A stretch of DNA of 24,770 bases, taken from the IMG/VR virus record IMGVR_UViG_2671180298_000004; one strand, 5' to 3'. Made by a program: the position numbers and the translations under genes. Each line of letters begins with the position of its first letter. Positions within the stretch are counted from its first letter, which is position 1. The DNA is from a virus. Taxonomy: Duplodnaviria; Heunggongvirae; Uroviricota; Caudoviricetes. Positions 15,361-23,131 of this stretch are shown here, one piece after another. The notes under the pieces are model-generated. The model ran no database searches. It saw only the letters and a list, made by a program, of their open reading frames with translations, and was not told the DNA's origin.

Positions 15361-15612
15361 CAGAAAGTAGTCGTAAGAACGGTGATCACTGTCCGCTTTG
15401 TGCCAGGAGCAGCCATTGCTAAGTCCATCCTGTATTGTGCAGGTCAGCTCGTTTTTAAAGAGTCCGGCCATCATCTTACTGGTACAGACACCATATACTT
15501 TGTGACGGTCAGGCTACATATGCACAACTCAACTTATTCATCTATTTTTTGCTTTAGCATGTCAGTGTTGCTTTCTCGTCGGCGGGTGAGCGGTGACCTG
15601 ACCTGTCGATAA
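15307..15612 (+). CDS. ydfV: YdfV-like ORF (101 aa); doubtful because its 5' end overlaps the relBE operator.
   Basis: ORF track; length matches the K-12 annotation as I recall it; no clear Shine-Dalgarno. Confidence 0.35.
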   Translation: MSLQVSHYNMLRASHEGSQKVVVRTVITVRFVPGAAIAKSILYCAGQLVFKESGHHLTGTDTIYFVTVRLHMHNSTYSSIFCFSMSVLLSRRRVSGDLTCR

Positions 15613-15764
15613 AGGAACGTAACACGTTTTATGCAACACCCGCATGCGGCAGAAAATTATTGCCGAACGTTTACCCCTGTCAACAAGCTTTACTTTCTGA
15701 GGCGCGCCAGCCCGCGAGGAAAACAATCTGAACATCAAACAATTAATGACACAAGAAATACGAT

Positions 15765-15791
15765 TAAAGATTTTTTTGTGCATGCCGATAG
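15765..15791 (+). promoter_or_regulatory. Sigma-28 (FliA) promoter of flxA: TAAAGATT - 11 nt - GCCGATAG.
   Basis: Close match to the sigma-28 consensus TAAAGTTT-N11-GCCGATAA, 24 nt upstream of the flxA start; AAGGAGA Shine-Dalgarno at 15803-15809. Confidence 0.75.
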
Positions 15792-15814
15792 TGCTTTTTT
15801 AAAAGGAGAAATCT

Positions 15815-16147
15815 ATGTCTGTCACAATTCAGGGAAATACCTCAACCGTTATTTCAAACAACTCCGCCCCGGAAGGAACATCAGAAATAGCCAAAATCAC
15901 AAGACAAATTCAGGTGCTGACTGAAAAGCTTGGGAAAATCTCATCGGAAGAGGGGATGACGACACAGCAGAAAAAAGAAATGGCTGCATTGGTACAGAAG
16001 CAAATTGAAAGCCTCTGGGCTCAACTGGAGCAGTTGTTAAGGCAGCAGGCAGAGAAAAAGAATGAAGACGCGACAGTTCAGCCTGATAAAAAAGAAGAGA
16101 AAAAAGACGATACAAATACCGCTGGCACCATTGATATTTACGTCTAA
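15815..16147 (+). CDS. flxA: FlxA (110 aa), FliA-regulated protein.
   Basis: ORF track; Gln/Glu/Lys-rich coiled-coil-like protein; preceded by a sigma-28 promoter. Confidence 0.9.
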   Translation: MSVTIQGNTSTVISNNSAPEGTSEIAKITRQIQVLTEKLGKISSEEGMTTQQKKEMAALVQKQIESLWAQLEQLLRQQAEKKNEDATVQPDKKEEKKDDTNTAGTIDIYV

Positions 16148-16161
16148 GTGACAGCCGTATT

Positions 16162-16184
16162 GTGGCCCTCATCGGGCCACTTTT
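16162..16184 (+). terminator. Intrinsic terminator of flxA (GTGGCCC-TCATC-GGGCCAC followed by TTTT).
   Basis: Perfect 7-bp GC stem and T-run 15 nt after the flxA stop. Confidence 0.8.
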
Positions 16185-16340
16185 CGCCATCAGCCTTTTC
16201 TTTAAAGACATATTATCTTTGTATCATTTCTGATAGTTAACATTACAAGATATAAGTAATGGACGCACTCCCAATTAGTCTATTTAAATCGCCACGAGTT
16301 TAACTGACAACCCATGATCAATTATGAATTGCAACTATTT

Positions 16341-17958
16341 CTGTAGTCACTTTTGTGGGGACAGTCCACAAAACTGCCAACTTCCGCTTCTTGCTCTTAG
16401 CGGACATTAGCATAGGCTATTTACCATAACGCCTCATTACGCGCACCGCCCAGACTGACTCAGCGCGTTTCTGGCATATCCCCGGTAAAACAAGTAACAA
16501 ACCACCCGAAAATGAACACCAGAAACGCGACTTAAGAATCTACCCTATGAATGGATATGCACTCAACCGAATCGATCTTGGTTTCAATCTTTTTTATCGG
16601 GATCAGGCTTCTTTTTAGGTAACTTCGGGGGCTTAACTTGCTGATGACTTTGCGTTCGGCGCGTAAGCCAGGGATGGTCAGCTTTAGGTTTAACATAGTA
16701 TTTTGAGCGTAAATCAATACGGGCATTATCCACTCGTTCATGGACACTCTTTTCATCATCCAGTGGTATAGGCTCCGGGCCATCAACATACTTTTCCCAG
16801 CCCAGCGCTTTCCCGTCATACAGAACGTTAATTTCACCGTCAAAGTTCTCGCATACAGTAACAACCGAATGCCTAAGTCGATATCCCCGGCCCTCACTGC
16901 GTACCTGAAACGCACTGCTTTTGTACTGGAAAGTGAGATTTTTAGACAGAACGCGCTTCGCCTGTAGGCTGAAGATATAACCCAGTTCCTCTTCAGAATG
17001 GTGCACATCAAGATGAGCATTATCAGTAGTACGAGGCGACGTAGCGAACCGGTTGTTATAGGCTTCAATAAAGGTCGGCAACCATGCATTTGCTGTTTCA
17101 ATATCACTGATATTCTGAAGCCGCATTTCTTTGACCAGCCTGTCCTGTAGTGTCTGATTGGCGCGCTCTACCCGCCCTTTTGCCTGCGGGCTGTTGGCAT
17201 GGATTGGCTCGATGCCCAGTGTCTTTATCGCACGAGTGAACTGGGTCAGCTCACCTTCCCGCTCTGGGTTATTTACCCTGAATATACTGTGTCTATCAGA
17301 GTAGAGAGCGAGCGGTACGCCATGATCATTAAGGTAACCCCGGAGGGTTTCCATGTAAGCCCGGGTTGTTTCAGCAGGCACAAAACGCAACGCCATCAAC
17401 GCACTGGTGGCATCATCAATGAAAACGATCAGTGTACATCTGGGGCCTCGATTTTCAAACCAGTCATGAGGTGAGCCATCAATCTGGATCAGTTCACCGT
17501 AAGATGGTCGTCGCATGCGGCGTTGATATATACGGGCAATTTTACGACGGCGTTCACGCCATAACCCCTCTTCTATCATCCACTTTCTGAGAGTTTCAAC
17601 GGATAAAGATAAACCGTGTATCTCGCGCAATTTTTCGCACGCAAACGTAGGTCCAAAATCAGCGTAACGGCCTTTGAGGAGTGAAATTACTGTTGCTCTG
17701 AATTCAGTAGAAAAGGAATTATTAGGACGCTTTCCACGTCGGTGGGAAACCAGACCAGAAGGCCCTTCATTTCTATACCGTTGCACCAGACGTTTAACCT
17801 GCCGAATAGAAATGCCAATGCGTGCCGCAGCTTGTTCCTGAATAATCTGAAGTCGGTGGAGTTCCTTATGACTCATCGTAACAGTCTCTTTGATCATGAA
17901 AAATCCCCCAGAGAATTGTCTGGGGACATTTTAGAATGGTTCAAAGGGGACATTACAG
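16341..17958 (-). mobile_element. Insertion sequence (~1.6 kb) carrying one DDE transposase gene; ends approximate, with imperfect terminal inverted repeats beginning CTGTA(G/A)T.
   Basis: Single 437-aa transposase ORF; candidate imperfect inverted repeats at 16341-16360 and 17939-17958; no clear target-site duplication found by eye. Confidence 0.45.
16584..17897 (-). CDS. DDE transposase (integrase-core / rve type with N-terminal HTH; IS481- or ISNCY-like), 437 aa.
   Basis: N-terminal HTH (IGISIRQVKRLVQRY); DDE core with ...IQIDGSPHDW..., ...IVFIDDATS... and ...QAKGRVERANQTLQD...; it is not the transposase of IS1, IS2, IS3, IS4, IS5, IS30, IS150 or IS186 as I recall them. Confidence 0.85.
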   Translation of the reverse strand: MIKETVTMSHKELHRLQIIQEQAAARIGISIRQVKRLVQRYRNEGPSGLVSHRRGKRPNNSFSTEFRATVISLLKGRYADFGPTFACEKLREIHGLSLSVETLRKWMIEEGLWRERRRKIARIYQRRMRRPSYGELIQIDGSPHDWFENRGPRCTLIVFIDDATSALMALRFVPAETTRAYMETLRGYLNDHGVPLALYSDRHSIFRVNNPEREGELTQFTRAIKTLGIEPIHANSPQAKGRVERANQTLQDRLVKEMRLQNISDIETANAWLPTFIEAYNNRFATSPRTTDNAHLDVHHSEEELGYIFSLQAKRVLSKNLTFQYKSSAFQVRSEGRGYRLRHSVVTVCENFDGEINVLYDGKALGWEKYVDGPEPIPLDDEKSVHERVDNARIDLRSKYYVKPKADHPWLTRRTQSHQQVKPPKLPKKKPDPDKKD

Positions 17959-18231
17959 CTTGGTGTTAACAATAGCCTGCTTCTCCGTGCCTTTCGGCAC
18001 GTAAGAGGCTAACCTACATGTGTCTAGCATGAAATTGGCCTCAGATTAATGTTAAGCGTCTTGCAGGACGCGTAATGTTAACTGGGGCTTTTCTCTATCT
18101 GCCGTTGGTGTCCATGCCCGAGGCAGATAGCCTCAAGCACCCGCAGTCATTCTACTTAACTAAGATTTCCCCGCAAACCGTTTTTGTCCAGCACAGTAAA
18201 TATCCAACTAAACCAATGGAGTTCGCTGTAT

Positions 18232-18411
18232 TTACCGCCAGTATTCAATGCACATGACCGCCATGAACACCCCTAAAAAAAGGGCATTTATATATCCAAA
18301 TATTAATATCAAAACATCAACTTTTTCCATATACCTTGCTGTGAAGATGATGGGCATACATGATGCGAACAACCAGAACGCAACAAACAAAAACTGCAAT
18401 GCGTTTTTCAT
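18232..18411 (-). CDS. Small two-TM membrane protein (59 aa from MKNALQF...).
   Basis: Consensus Shine-Dalgarno AGGAGG 5 nt upstream of ATG 18411; two hydrophobic helices (FLFVAFWLFASCMPIIF and LILIFGYINALFLGVFMAVM). Confidence 0.5.
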   Translation of the reverse strand: MKNALQFLFVAFWLFASCMPIIFTARYMEKVDVLILIFGYINALFLGVFMAVMCIEYWR

Positions 18412-18665
18412 TATTCCTCCTACAATCAATGTGCAATTACATTTAAACACACCTCAATTTGGCCGGACATATAAATATCTAAACCAGAAAAAATCACTTA
18501 CATAGCGTTACAAACTCTTTAGTCTAAAGGTTCATCGTAAAACATTCCCCATACTTATCAGTCCGTTCCGCGCCAGGTAGCTCATTGCCTTATCTGGCAA
18601 CCTGTAATCAGGTTTCCGCTTTTTCAGTTGGCTGGTCGTTTAACCGACATAGTTAATCCATTAAT

Positions 18666-18953
18666 CTAGTTGCCGGATGTTGGTGGATTTTCGCGTTTTA
18701 GTTGTTCATAAAAGTGCACAGCTTTAACCAGTTCTTCTGATGTAACTGGGACTGGTGAGGCAGTGAATAAGGCCTGAATTTGATAGTTCGGCCTGTCGTT
18801 ACAATCCTCTTTTTTCGGTACATATTTCCAGTCACCAGACCACTACTTCCCCTGAAAGTCCGTAACGCCTTTTTTCACGTAGCGATATCGCCATGCCACT
18901 GGTTTTGCTTGCCCCGCCGTTTCATGCCCTTCCTGATAATTAATCTCGCTCAT
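18666..18953 (-). pseudogene. 95-codon reading frame interrupted by a single in-frame amber codon (TAG at 18843-18845, minus strand).
   Basis: Manual translation MSEINYQEGHETAGQAKPVAWRYRYVKKGVTDFQGK-(TAG)-WSGDWKYVPKKEDCNDRPNYQIQALFTASPVPVTSEELVKAVHFYEQLKRENPPTSGN; divergent from ydfA. Confidence 0.45.
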
Positions 18954-19089
18954 TCATCGCCCCACTCATCACAATATGCTTCGACCGGAGTTTTTCCCGC
19001 TTCATAGTCATCACGCTAGGATTCGACATCAGCAGCACTTCCACCGCGTAACTCACCATACCCCAGCGTTAAGGGGAAATGAGGTCAGC

Positions 19090-19245
19090 ATGGATACTAT
19101 CGATCTTGGCAACAACGAATCTCTGGTGTACGGCGTGTTTCCAAACCAGGACGGCACGTTCACCGCAATGACGTATACCAAAAGCAAAACGTTTAAAACC
19201 GAAAATGGTGCCCGTCGCTGGCTGGAAAGAAACTCAGGTGAGTGA
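19090..19245 (+). CDS. ydfA: YdfA (51 aa).
   Basis: GAGG Shine-Dalgarno 6 nt upstream of ATG 19090; sequence MDTIDLGNNESLVYGVFPNQDGTFTAMTYTKSKTFKTENGARRWLERNSGE; ydfA-ydfB-ydfC-dicF-dicB spacing matches my memory of K-12. Confidence 0.8.
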   Translation: MDTIDLGNNESLVYGVFPNQDGTFTAMTYTKSKTFKTENGARRWLERNSGE

Positions 19246-19246
19246 T

Positions 19247-19375
19247 ATGGATTTCGACACAATCATGGAAAAGGCTTACGAAGAATACTTCGAAGGCCTT
19301 GCCGAAGGCGAAGAAGCTCTCAGCTTCAGTGAGTTTAAACAGGCGCTTTCCAGTTCGGCAAAATCTAACGGCTGA
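19247..19375 (+). CDS. ydfB: YdfB (42 aa).
   Basis: Starts 1 nt after the ydfA stop; sequence MDFDTIMEKAYEEYFEGLAEGEEALSFSEFKQALSSSAKSNG. Confidence 0.75.
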   Translation: MDFDTIMEKAYEEYFEGLAEGEEALSFSEFKQALSSSAKSNG

Positions 19376-19404
19376 TAAGCGAAACAGCACCGCGAGGAAT
19401 CAGT

Positions 19405-19623
19405 ATGCAGAAACGAGAACCCGTCATCATCGCGCCAGACTATACCGATGATGAACTTTATGAGTGGATGCGCCAGAAAATTAATGCAGCGCAGGATCTG
19501 AAATGGGCTAATGAAGCCAGGGCTAAGCAGGCTGAAAATCTGTCCGCTCTGGAGCAGGATATCACCAATCTGGAAAAAGCAGCGGCATTAAGCATTGCCA
19601 GAATGATTACATACCCGCGTTAG
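19405..19623 (+). CDS. ydfC: YdfC (72 aa).
   Basis: ORF track; sequence MQKREPVIIAPDYTDDELYEWMRQKINAAQDLKWANEARAKQAENLSALEQDITNLEKAAALSIARMITYPR. Confidence 0.8.
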   Translation: MQKREPVIIAPDYTDDELYEWMRQKINAAQDLKWANEARAKQAENLSALEQDITNLEKAAALSIARMITYPR

Positions 19624-19963
19624 TAGCTAATCAACAAAGCTAAGGTTAGTAATTAAGGAGTTCTCCACGGGTGAGGTGGAGTGCGTGCGCCGGACACGGG
19701 TGCGCATCCGGAACTGACAGTTTACTGAAAGGATATTTCCCTGAAAAGTCAGACCATAACGCGAAAGCGCACGGCGAGGTAGCTGGTTCATAGATAGCCT
19801 GTCGTTAAATTTTCGTCGACCGTGCGCTTCCGGTTGTGGCAACCCGCGAAATGGCGCGGCGGTAAGTATGGCGGGGTTATTCCTTCCCCGTTGAGGACAC
19901 CGGGTTGTCAGGTTGACCATACGCTTAAGTGACAACCCCGCTGCAACGCCCTCTGTTATCAAT

Positions 19964-20016
19964 TTTCTGGTGACGTTTGGCGGTATCAGTTTTACTCCGT
20001 GACTGCTCTGCCGCCC
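19964..20016 (+). ncRNA. dicF: DicF small RNA (53 nt) with 3' terminator hairpin and T-run.
   Basis: Sequence TTTCTGGTGACGTTTGGCGGTATCAGTTTTACTCCGTGACTGCTCTGCCGCCC followed by TTTTT matches DicF from memory; GGCGG...CCGCC stem. Confidence 0.9.
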
Positions 20017-20190
20017 TTTTTAAAGTGAATTTTGTGATGTGGTGAATGCGGCTGAGCGCACGCGGAACAGTTAAAACCAAAAACAGTGTTATGGGTGGAT
20101 TCTCTGTATCCGGCGTTAATTGTTAACTAGTTAACGTCACCTGGAGGCACCAGGCACTGCATCACAAAATTCATTGTTGAGGACGCGATA

Positions 20191-20379
20191 ATGAAAACGT
20201 TATTACCAAACGTTAATACGTCTGAAGGTTGTTTTGAAATTGGTGTCACTATCAGTAACCCAGTATTTACTGAAGATGCCATTAACAAGAGAAAACAAGA
20301 ACGGGAGCTATTAAATAAAATATGCATTGTTTCAATGCTGGCTCGTTTACGTCTGATGCCAAAAGGATGTGCACAATGA
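20191..20379 (+). CDS. dicB: Cell-division inhibitor DicB (62 aa).
   Basis: Sequence MKTLLPNVNTSEGCFEIGVTISNPVFTEDAINKRKQERELLNKICIVSMLARLRLMPKGCAQ. Confidence 0.9.
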   Translation: MKTLLPNVNTSEGCFEIGVTISNPVFTEDAINKRKQERELLNKICIVSMLARLRLMPKGCAQ

Positions 20380-20567
20380 ATTCAGCATTTGTGCTTGTTC
20401 TGACAGTTTTTCTTGTTTCCGGAGAGCCAGTTGATATTGCAGTCAGTGTTCACAGGACAATGCAGGAGTGTATGACTGCAGCAACCGAACAGAAAATTCC
20501 CGGTAACTGTTACCCGGTCGATAAAGTTATTCACCAGGATAATATCGAAATCCCGGCAGGTCTTTAA
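20376..20567 (+). CDS. ydfD: YdfD (63 aa) small hydrophobic N-terminus protein; start overlaps the dicB stop (ATGA).
   Basis: Internal ATG of ORF 20322-20567; sequence MNSAFVLVLTVFLVSGEPVDIAVSV... Confidence 0.8.
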   Translation: MNSAFVLVLTVFLVSGEPVDIAVSVHRTMQECMTAATEQKIPGNCYPVDKVIHQDNIEIPAGL

Positions 20568-20659
20568 AACAGTTCCGTAATAAATATCCGGTTTCATTCT
20601 TATATGCCAGCAATGGCAGGGATTTGTTCATCCTTAAATCTGTCATGAGGTTAAAACAA

Positions 20660-23131
20660 ATGAGTAAAGTCTTTATTTGCGCCGCTATTCCTGACGAACT
20701 GGCAACAAGGGAAGAAGGCGCTGTGGCTGTAGCCACAGCCATTGAAGCTGGCGACGAACGCCGTGCTCGAGCAAAATTTCACTGGCAATTCCTGGAACAT
20801 TATCCGGCTGCTCAGGACTGCGCTTATAAATTTATTGTCTGCGAGGATAAACCTGGCATACCCCGCCCTGCCCTCGATTCATGGGATGCTGAATATATGC
20901 AGGAAAACCGCTGGGATGAGGAGTCTGCTTCTTTTGTCCCGGTTGAGACTGAATCCGATCCGATGAACGTCACTTTTGACAAGCTGGCCCCTGAAGTACA
21001 GAACGCTGTCATGGTTAAGTTCGACACATGTGAAAACATCACCGTTGATATGGTTATTAGCGCACAGGAATTGTTGCAGGAAGACATGGCAACATTCGAC
21101 GGACATATCGTTGAAGCGTTGATGAAAATGCCAGAAGTTAACGCCATGTATCCGGAGCTTAAGTTGCACGCCATTGGGTGGGTTAAGCATAAATGTATTC
21201 CTGGTGCTAAATGGCCCGAAATTCAGGCAGAGATGCGCATCTGGAAAAAACGTCGCGAAGGTGAACGCAAGGAAACCGGAAAATACACGTCTGTTGTTGA
21301 TCTCGCCCGCGCCAGAGCCAATCAACAGTACACTGAAAATTCAACAGGAAAAATCAGCCCGGTCATTGCTGCCATTCATCGCGAATACAAGCAGACATGG
21401 AAAACACTGGATGACGAACTGGCCTACGCTCTCTGGCCTAGTGATGTGGATGCCGGAAACATTGACGGCAGCATCCATCGCTGGGCAAAAAAAGAAGTTA
21501 TCGACAACGACCGCGAAGACTGGAAGCGTATCTCGGCATCAATGCGCAAACAGCCTGATGCCCTTCGCTACGACCGCCAAACTATTTTTGGCCTTGTCCG
21601 TGAGCGTCCGATCGACATTCACAAAGATCCCGTAGCACTGAACAAATATATCTGCGAATACCTGACGACAAAGGGCGTGTTTGAGAATGAAGAAACAGAC
21701 CTGGGCACTGTTGATGTTCTCCAGTCATCAGAAACACAAACTGATGCAGTGGAAACTGAGGTATCTGATATCCCAAAAAATGAAACCGCGCCGGAAGCTG
21801 AACCATCTGTAGAGCGTGAGGGGCCGTTCTATTTCCTCTTCGCAGATAAGGACGGAGAAAAATACGGTCGCGCAAACAAACTCTCTGGTCTGGATAAGGC
21901 ACTGGCTGCTGGCGCCACTGAAATCACAAAAGAAGAATATTTTGCCCGAAAAAATGGCACATACACGGGCTTACCGCAAAATGTAGATACCGCTGAAGAT
22001 TCAGAACAACCAGAGCCGATAAAAGTTACCGCTGACGAAGTAAACAAAATTATGCAGGCAGCCAATATCAGCCAGCCTGACGCCGATAAGTTGCTTGCTG
22101 CATCACGTGGTGAATTTGTTGAAGGGATTAGTGACCCGAATGATCCGAAATGGGTTAAGGGGCTCCAGACCCGCGATTCTGTGAACCAGAACCAGCATGA
22201 ATCGGAACGGAACTACCAAAAAGCGGAACAAAACAGTCCAAATGCGTTACAAAACGAGCCAGAAACGAAACAGCCTGAACCAGTAGCGCAACAGGAAGTG
22301 GAAAAAGTCTGCACCGCCTGCGGTCAGACCGGCGGCGGCAACTGCCCTGATTGTGGCGCGGTGATGGGCGACGCAACATACCAAGAAACATTCGATGAAG
22401 AGTATCAGGTTGAAGTTCAGGAAGATGATCCGGAGGAAATGGAAGGCGCTGAACATCCACACAAGGAGAACACTGGCGGCAATCAGCATCACAATAGCGA
22501 TAATGAAACTGGCGAGACGGCAGATCACCCAATTAAGGTGAACGGTCATCACGAAATCACATCCACCAGCAGGACGTGTGACCATCTAATGATCGACCTT
22601 GAAACCATGGGAAAAAATCCTGATGCCCCGATCATCTCAATAGGTGCAATATTTTTCGATCCGCAAACCGGAGATATGGGACCGGAATTTAGTAAGACTA
22701 TCGATCTGGAAACTGCTGGCGGAGTCATTGATCGGGACACCATTAAATGGTGGCTTAAGCAATCACGCGAAGCGCAATCTGCCATTATGACCGATGAAAT
22801 CCCGTTAGATGATGCACTGTTACAATTGCGAGAATTTATCGACGAAAACTCCGGTGAATTTTTTGTTCAGGTTTGGGGAAATGGAGCCAACTTCGACAAC
22901 ACGATTTTGCGCCGTTCATACGAACGGCAGGGGATCCCCTGCCCGTGGCGTTACTACAACGATCGCGATGTACGCACAATCGTTGAGCTGGGGAAAGCCA
23001 TAGACTTCGATGCCAGAACGGCTATTCCATTCGAAGGTGAGCGCCATAATGCACTTGATGACGCCCGTTACCAGGCAAAATACGTTTCAGTTATCTGGCA
23101 AAAACTGATCCCGAGTCAGGCTGATTCTTAA
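20660..23131 (+). CDS. RecE-like protein (823 aa from ATG 20660) with a C-terminal DEDDh (DnaQ-like) 3'-5' exonuclease domain; apparently the intact form of the gene truncated in K-12 (ydfE).
   Basis: Central segment (...KLLAASRGEFVEGISDPNDPKWVKG...CTACGQTGGGNCPDCGAVMGDATYQETFDEE...) matches the non-catalytic middle of Rac RecE from memory. C-terminal ~185 aa carry Exo I (MIDLETMG), Exo II (GNGANFDNTIL) and Exo III (HNALDDARYQA) motifs. Confidence 0.85.
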   Translation: MSKVFICAAIPDELATREEGAVAVATAIEAGDERRARAKFHWQFLEHYPAAQDCAYKFIVCEDKPGIPRPALDSWDAEYMQENRWDEESASFVPVETESDPMNVTFDKLAPEVQNAVMVKFDTCENITVDMVISAQELLQEDMATFDGHIVEALMKMPEVNAMYPELKLHAIGWVKHKCIPGAKWPEIQAEMRIWKKRREGERKETGKYTSVVDLARARANQQYTENSTGKISPVIAAIHREYKQTWKTLDDELAYALWPSDVDAGNIDGSIHRWAKKEVIDNDREDWKRISASMRKQPDALRYDRQTIFGLVRERPIDIHKDPVALNKYICEYLTTKGVFENEETDLGTVDVLQSSETQTDAVETEVSDIPKNETAPEAEPSVEREGPFYFLFADKDGEKYGRANKLSGLDKALAAGATEITKEEYFARKNGTYTGLPQNVDTAEDSEQPEPIKVTADEVNKIMQAANISQPDADKLLAASRGEFVEGISDPNDPKWVKGLQTRDSVNQNQHESERNYQKAEQNSPNALQNEPETKQPEPVAQQEVEKVCTACGQTGGGNCPDCGAVMGDATYQETFDEEYQVEVQEDDPEEMEGAEHPHKENTGGNQHHNSDNETGETADHPIKVNGHHEITSTSRTCDHLMIDLETMGKNPDAPIISIGAIFFDPQTGDMGPEFSKTIDLETAGGVIDRDTIKWWLKQSREAQSAIMTDEIPLDDALLQLREFIDENSGEFFVQVWGNGANFDNTILRRSYERQGIPCPWRYYNDRDVRTIVELGKAIDFDARTAIPFEGERHNALDDARYQAKYVSVIWQKLIPSQADS

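Follow-up and report, generated by a model that had tools for sequence, protein, structure and literature searches.

The locus considered here raises the question whether a reading frame that is split by an amber codon belongs to a gene whose stop codon is read through or to a gene that has been inactivated. It is located in a stretch of 24,770 nucleotides from an IMG/VR virus record (hereafter the window), which represents the Qin cryptic prophage of E. coli and is 100% identical to the genome of strain SCU-118 (NZ_CP051716.1) over the tested stretch. The flanks are formed by hokD-relBE-ydfV-flxA-ydfW on one side and by ydfA-ydfB-ydfC-dicF-dicB-ydfD, a RecE-like exonuclease gene, xis, and int on the other. 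The frame is encoded on the minus strand and starts with an ATG at 18953-18951, which is followed by 36 sense codons, a TAG at 18845-18843, 58 further sense codons, and a second TAG at 18668-18666. An earlier note on this DNA had located the frame correctly, including its strand, the 36 codons ahead of the first TAG and the total of 95 codons (36 + 1 + 58), and had miscounted the codons after the TAG as 57; it had left the choice between a recent nonsense pseudogene and stop-codon readthrough.

The amber-split frame is very probably a dead gene, namely a decayed copy of a small lambdoid early gene. The pseudogene is already known, as it is annotated in RefSeq: the PGAP entry HHJ32_RS22605 of SCU-118 (NZ_CP051716.1; "hypothetical protein; frameshifted; internal stop") corresponds to window positions 18532-18953, and the same call was made in strains EH41 (GC231_RS12760), KFu021 (WAZ92_RS10815), and S1-KEN-07-A (V6S32_RS09060). 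The pseudogene sequences of SCU-118 and EH41 are 100% identical to that of the window; SCU-118 differs from the window in nothing, whereas in EH41, KFu021, and S1-KEN-07-A the pseudogene is found in a longer prophage context in which the upstream genes have been kept. The pseudogene is entirely missing from the Qin prophage of K-12. In itself, another decayed gene in a cryptic prophage as well known as Qin is of little importance; the case illustrates that an ORF split by one stop codon should be compared with full-length homologs before recoding is invoked.

The ancestral gene and its family

The first TAG is not a sequencing error, since the exact 69-nt segment containing it recurs in 924 complete-genome records and in 111 IMG/VR contigs. 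Frames of the same type, defined by an ORF of at least 30 codons with an ATG start, one stop codon, and at least 50 more codons, number 18 in the window and 5.7 +/- 2.3 in shuffled sequences. The split-frame pattern by itself is within chance, and it is homology, not the arrangement of stop codons, that makes the frame at 18666-18953 meaningful and because of which it counts as real.

When translated across the first stop codon, the frame matches the family phrog_660 over residues 2-93 with an E-value of 5.7e-29 (PHROG profile comparison), and full-length orthologs cover the whole profile to its end (E = 1.8e-72). Such orthologs were collected by a scan of IMG/VR, which returned 80 related loci, 79 of them scorable. 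An ORF of 171 amino acids is open in 70 of the 79, and the translation of the remnant aligns codon for codon with the intact orthologs, so that its homology to an intact protein-coding family is significant. Codon 37, the position of the first TAG in the window copy, is represented in the 79 intact or near-intact orthologs by CCG (49), ATG (16), CAG (11), or CTG (3), and in no case by a stop codon. The members of the family, which comprise the 171-aa IMG/VR orthologs and a protein of 187 aa from E. coli EC12 (WP_024226627.1), are homologous to the remnant across the amber and share its genomic position between the DUF977/replication genes and hokD; they are open, whereas the window copy is distinguished by two ambers, the loss of 30 codons, and a frameshift at its 3' end. 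According to the earlier note, a lack of conservation of the downstream codons in homologs would have spoken against its proposal. The opposite was found, and conservation of these codons is expected of a pseudogene derived from a real gene.

Neither the remnant nor a full-length ortholog gave a match in Pfam or NCBIfam, a helix-turn-helix (HTH) domain was not detected in either, and a PDB sequence search with the full-length ortholog yielded no relative. Information on the type of gene comes from its location. In intact lambdoid prophages, it is part of the rightward early operon, where it follows YdaT, replication, and DUF977 genes and a gene for a 58-aa protein, the stop codon of which overlaps its start (ATGA), and where it precedes hok/sok, DUF968, RusA, and the Q antiterminator. 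Because of this position late in the rightward early operon, the ancestral gene is therefore a "nin-region-like" accessory gene and not a regulator. The ancestor of the window copy would have been a Qin-type lambdoid prophage that carried the 171-aa phrog_660 gene late in the dicC-promoted operon, with the replication genes before it and hok/sok after it, and in which this gene would have been translationally coupled to the 58-aa gene through the ATGA overlap.

Lesions of the window copy

Relative to its intact relatives, the window copy carries disabling lesions, which are compiled in Table 1 together with those of its immediate neighbourhood.

Table 1 Features of the phrog_660 pseudogene remnant and of the adjoining sequence in the window
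Feature	Position	Strand	Basis and remarks
Whole phrog_660 pseudogene remnant, ancestral ATG to ancestral TGA	18532..18953	-	PGAP; alignment to 171-aa orthologs up to the shared end (...VLR-stop)
First amber, codon 37	18843..18845	-	Sense in all intact orthologs; TTG in the nearest open relatives, corresponding to T>A at 18844
Second amber ("terminal" stop of the earlier note)	18666..18668	-	CAG (Gln) in 171-aa orthologs and in 138-140-aa open relatives; C>T at 18668
Junction of 90-nt (30-codon) in-frame deletion	18681..18698	-	Direct repeats GA(G/A)AATCC(G/A)CCA, encoding ENPP / DNPP
4-nt deletion between 18636 and 18635	18624..18640	-	Frame shifted versus the 171-aa form; ends at TGA 18624-18626
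A6 run 5' of the first amber, length polymorphic among sister copies	18870..18875	-	
C-terminal 36 codons of the upstream 58-aa gene, cut by deletion junction	18950..19060	-	Own amber at 19016-19018 (TGG>TAG); stop overlaps pseudogene start (ATGA)
Junction of 3,629-bp deletion, TA microhomology	19059..19060	.	blastn versus K-12 and EH41; remnant fused 31 nt upstream of ydfA

Beyond the 4-nt deletion, the alignment resumes and extends to the ancestral end (VLR-TGA) at 18532, which accounts for the coordinates given by PGAP. The nearest open relatives are mosaic ORFs of 138-140 aa, which were found in L201, L202, and 17 other IMG/VR loci and are open in all 19. Their N-terminal module is a different one (MKMTELTKEQL...; MKMTELTKEQLIEEAKL...) and is joined to the C-terminal module of the phrog_660-type remnant. 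They carry the same 90-nt and 4-nt deletions, have the same end (...ASGNQINGLTMSVKRPAN-stop, i.e., ...VKRPAN-stop), and are identical to window positions 18532-18893 at 347 of 362 nucleotides (96% DNA identity). The C-terminal module and the deletions are thus common to both, whereas the N-terminus and the two amber codons differ, the mosaic ORFs having TTG at 18843-18845 and CAG at 18666-18668. The occurrence of this C-terminal module on a different N-terminus in 19 IMG/VR loci is an example of module shuffling.

Compared with the mosaic form, the window contains an ORF of 109 codons (ATG 18953 to TGA 18624-18626) that is interrupted by two ambers. Against either reference form, the stop codon at 18666-18668 is a second nonsense mutation, although it had looked like the natural end of the frame. 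Since the 90-nt and the 4-nt deletion occur in consistently open ORFs, they may define a viable short isoform, in which case only the two ambers would be clearly disabling. The pseudogene alternative of the earlier note is thus borne out by the homology, the lesions, and the RefSeq pseudogene call; its "single amber" has to be replaced by two in-frame ambers and, if the canonical 171-aa family serves as reference, by a 30-codon deletion and a 3' frameshift in addition.

The 90-nt junction is present in every TAG-allele IMG/VR locus (111), except about five, where detection failed for the junction as well as for the undeleted middle segment. Among the alleles with this junction, codon 37 is TAG in 96, TTG in 19, and CTG in 8 cases. 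Because the junction also occurs in combination with TTG or CTG, the 90-nt deletion is probably older than the first amber. The loss of 30 codons between the short direct repeats and the loss of the C-terminus via the 4-nt deletion would then have come first, and the two ambers would have been acquired next, by conversion of TTG or CAG to TAG at codon 37 and of CAG to TAG 59 codons later. From then on, the product would have been at most a peptide of 36 residues.

One further candidate was considered as intact reference, the RefSeq protein WP_001556926.1 of 129 aa. Its use led to an apparent 89-nt frameshifting deletion, and it was dropped in view of the predominance of the 171-aa form among the scored orthologs. 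WP_001556926.1 (L003, 3198-3587, minus strand; also in L004) is a variant of the 171-aa form with a 1-nt frameshift. Its annotation is that of a normal hypothetical protein, but it probably represents one more pseudogene that has not been flagged.

The decay is not confined to the phrog_660 gene. The remnant of the 58-aa gene in the window reads YGELRGGSAADVES-stop-RDDYEAGKTPVEAYCDEWGDE-stop, and intact 58-aa proteins are encoded in L002, L003, and L195. In EH41, the 58-aa gene has the same amber and has also lost its start ATG, and the next gene upstream, a DUF7167-like gene, is interrupted by an AAA>TAA change; the 58-aa gene remnant in EH41 is not annotated by PGAP. All three premature stop codons in the window region are TAG, which is mildly unusual (P ~0.03-0.06 in a simple model). 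An amber-suppressing background, which could be derived from these three TAGs, was rejected because the DUF7167-like pseudogene of EH41 uses TAA.

Decay and prevalence of the amber allele

The IMG/VR loci with the TAG allele fall into two sub-lineages. The sister sub-lineage (L195 type) is characterized by two additional A residues in the A6 run at 18870-18875 and by a 61-nt deletion downstream of the TAG. In 103 well-aligned copies of the TAG lineage, the run consists of 5, 6, 7, or 8 A residues in 6, 42, 14, and 41 loci, respectively, and a frameshift ahead of the TAG is present in 61 of the 103. For TAG versus sense codon and presence versus absence of the 61-nt deletion, all four gametes were seen, which implies recombination or recurrent deletion among the decaying alleles. 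Polymorphism in the TAG lineage, counted in filtered copies from which misaligned outliers were left out, shows a ratio of nonsynonymous to synonymous changes of 22:7 (3.1), to be compared with a neutral expectation of 3.8 and with 35:23 (1.5) in the intact lineage. The contrast between the two lineages is not significant (Fisher p = 0.23), and its direction fits relaxation. The within-lineage polymorphism was used in place of a comparison of the window copy with intact alleles, as the latter gave a dN/dS of ~0.2 and no visible relaxation; this value indicates that most of the divergence predates the inactivation and that the decay of the window copy is modest.

The TAG allele accounts for ~17% of complete-genome E. 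coli records (924 versus 5,426 genomes' worth). A segment composed of the 90-nt junction and the second TAG is matched at an identity of at least 99% by ~550 genomes, and ~670 more carry a further-deleted form, whereas the undeleted middle segment is found in only 179-338 genomes (~3-6%). The qualification "recent" in the earlier note does not agree with an allele that is present in ~900 complete-genome records and is split into sub-lineages with further lesions. Judged from these distributions, the TAG pseudogene is old and widespread, most simply by riding on common cryptic prophages.

A selective cause of this prevalence was considered as well. As the TAG allele is commoner than the undeleted segment and as the gene and its 58-aa neighbour were inactivated recurrently across prophage backgrounds, the inactivated allele might have been favoured, either because the host bears a cost from the phrog_660 protein, so that a knockout of the gene was selected during prophage domestication, or because the 36-aa peptide was exapted. 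We consider this very unlikely.

More specifically, the TAG allele could be a domesticated one whose functional product is the N-terminal peptide of 36 residues (18846-18953). This proposal could draw on the same excess of the TAG allele (924 records) over the undeleted segment (179-338 genomes) and on a dN/dS of ~0.09 versus intact alleles in the first 36 codons, a value based on very few sites. Against it, an A run of 5, 7, or 8 shifts the frame at codons 27-28 in 61 of 103 sister copies. Furthermore, the upstream coupled gene is truncated and has its own amber, the operon promoter has been deleted, and a sigma-70-like promoter was not found on either strand in 18400-19500. With hitch-hiking on widespread cryptic prophages as the simpler account of the prevalence, a functional peptide is very improbable.

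Readthrough or amber suppression would give rise to a functional product of about 95 or of 108 aa. In its favour, the codons downstream of the first TAG show homology to a real protein and have kept a signature of coding sequence. Moreover, an ancestral Gln codon is replaced by the second amber and possibly by the first one, too, and a supE-type suppressor would read both as glutamine. In programmed readthrough of phages, of which the A1 read-through protein of Q-beta is an example, functional orthologs have the stop codon in common, and selection acts on an extension without lesions. The window shares with these cases only the superficial pattern of a stop codon followed by sense codons with coding character. 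Its first stop codon is confined to a decaying lineage and is missing from all intact orthologs, every open ortholog having CCG, ATG, CAG, CTG, or TTG at codon 37. The extension is not intact either: two ambers would have to be passed instead of one, the second being that at 18666-18668, and the sister copies have frameshifts before the TAG (61 of 103) and many of them the 61-nt deletion after it. Regarding the means of decoding, the window is devoid of any tRNA gene and hence of a suppressor tRNA, and the first stop codon is followed by T (AAG-TAG-T); TAG-T is generally reported to be a strong termination context in E. coli. Near-neutral polymorphism in the TAG lineage and the loss of both the native promoter and the upstream translational-coupling partner also argue against a readthrough product. 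The readthrough alternative of the earlier note is thus left without support by the two ambers, the frameshifted sister copies, and the sense codon 37 of the intact orthologs, and we regard it as extremely improbable.

Hardly more credible is the retention of the remnant for a non-coding role, be it as a recombination module or as a transcribed leader of sok and of the 59-aa membrane ORF that follows downstream. This candidate 59-aa ORF, behind which a complete sok RNA is located, is free of lesions in all 165 copies, and the segment recombines as a module (mosaic N-termini; four gametes for TAG versus 61-nt deletion). However, the Rfam matches in 17800-20300 are limited to sok, DicF, and a sub-threshold STnc100, none of which overlaps 18532-18953, the sister copies tolerate 61-nt and other deletions inside the region, promoter-like sites were not found in 18400-19500, and no observation requires such a role.

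Decay of an accessory gene thus remains the preferred reading, and the remnant is presumably neither transcribed nor translated.

The 3,629-bp deletion beside ydfA and the surrounding prophage

The present position of the pseudogene is the result of a rare event. Up to position 19060, the window shares 99.87% identity with EH41; from there, its sequence continues at a point 31 nt upstream of ydfA. Of 5,426 complete E. coli genomes, only 2 contain this junction. In EH41, the order is ydfW - ISNCY remnant - pseudogene - 58-aa pseudogene - DUF7167 pseudogene - methyltransferase - DUF977 - replication - YdaT - dicC, followed by the divergent dicA - ydfA, so that the pseudogene occupies the distal end of the P_R-like dicC operon and is ~3.6 kb away from dicC/dicA. 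The Qin prophage of K-12 has the order ydfW-ydfX-dicC-dicA-ydfA. DicA is a CI-like repressor and DicC a Cro-like protein; the P_L-like promoter dicBp is located just upstream of ydfA, and the P_R-like promoter dicCp drives the opposite operon (bioRxiv 10.1101/2023.04.14.536235).

The earlier note had expected a regulatory gene divergent from ydfA. For K-12 this holds, as dicA and dicC are located there; in the window, these genes have been deleted and the remnant in their place is no regulator. It has no HTH domain, and its native position is not beside the divergent immunity promoters, from which it is separated in EH41 by YdaT, replication, DUF977, and other genes. The remnant adjoins ydfA because the 3,629-bp deletion removed the regulators. 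At a later stage and in very few strains, this deletion, which begins halfway through the 58-aa gene and stops 31 nt short of ydfA, would have eliminated the immunity genes dicC/dicA together with the promoter from which the phrog_660 gene had been transcribed, leaving the remnant back to back with ydfA. It took dicC, dicA, dicCp, and the replication genes, and since only 31 nt upstream of ydfA remain, dicBp was probably lost as well. The loss of the DicA/DicC switch by a rare deletion is the more biologically interesting fact of the region. After this deletion, dicF and the division inhibitor gene dicB are left without repressor and probably also without their native promoter.

On both sides of the locus, the window is 99.9-100% identical to the Qin prophage of K-12 (15500-16768 and 19059-20500), including the same ydfABC-dicF-dicB-ydfD genes; in between, K-12 has ydfX-dicC-dicA, whereas the window has an ISNCY remnant, sok, the 59-aa ORF, and the pseudogene. 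The identity extends to 16768 and covers 12 nt at the 3' end of ydfX. The ISNCY-family transposase remnant covers 16584-17970 (minus strand) and is annotated by PGAP as partial with missing C-terminus; the ORF of 437 codons at 16584-17897 is chimeric, with IS sequence running into unrelated prophage DNA. A complete sok antisense RNA/hok leader is located at 17971-18142 on the minus strand (Rfam RF01794, 104 bits, model positions 1-157). It stops exactly where the hokD ORF is expected to start, and the sequence below 17970 belongs to the ISNCY remnant. As the hokD ORF has been replaced by this remnant, sok is an orphan antitoxin RNA without toxin.

At 18232-18411 (minus strand), there is an unannotated ORF of 59 codons (MKNALQFLFVAFWLF...) with two hydrophobic segments and a perfect AGGAGG Shine-Dalgarno sequence. 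This candidate gene is intact in all of 165 related copies, with a polymorphism of 10 nonsynonymous to 1 synonymous changes after filtering, and had no match in Pfam, NCBIfam, or PHROG.

On the plus strand, the Rfam match to STnc100 at 20014-20223 is below threshold (33.7 bits; gathering score, 47). It directly follows DicF at 19965-20016 (76.7 bits in Rfam) and overlaps with the beginning of dicB. Further downstream, the ORF of the RecE-like exonuclease (20624-23131, plus strand) is intact with 835 codons from a TTG start, the PGAP annotation having a length of 2,472 nt, and the corresponding gene of K-12, ydfE, has been truncated by IS2 and is a pseudogene.
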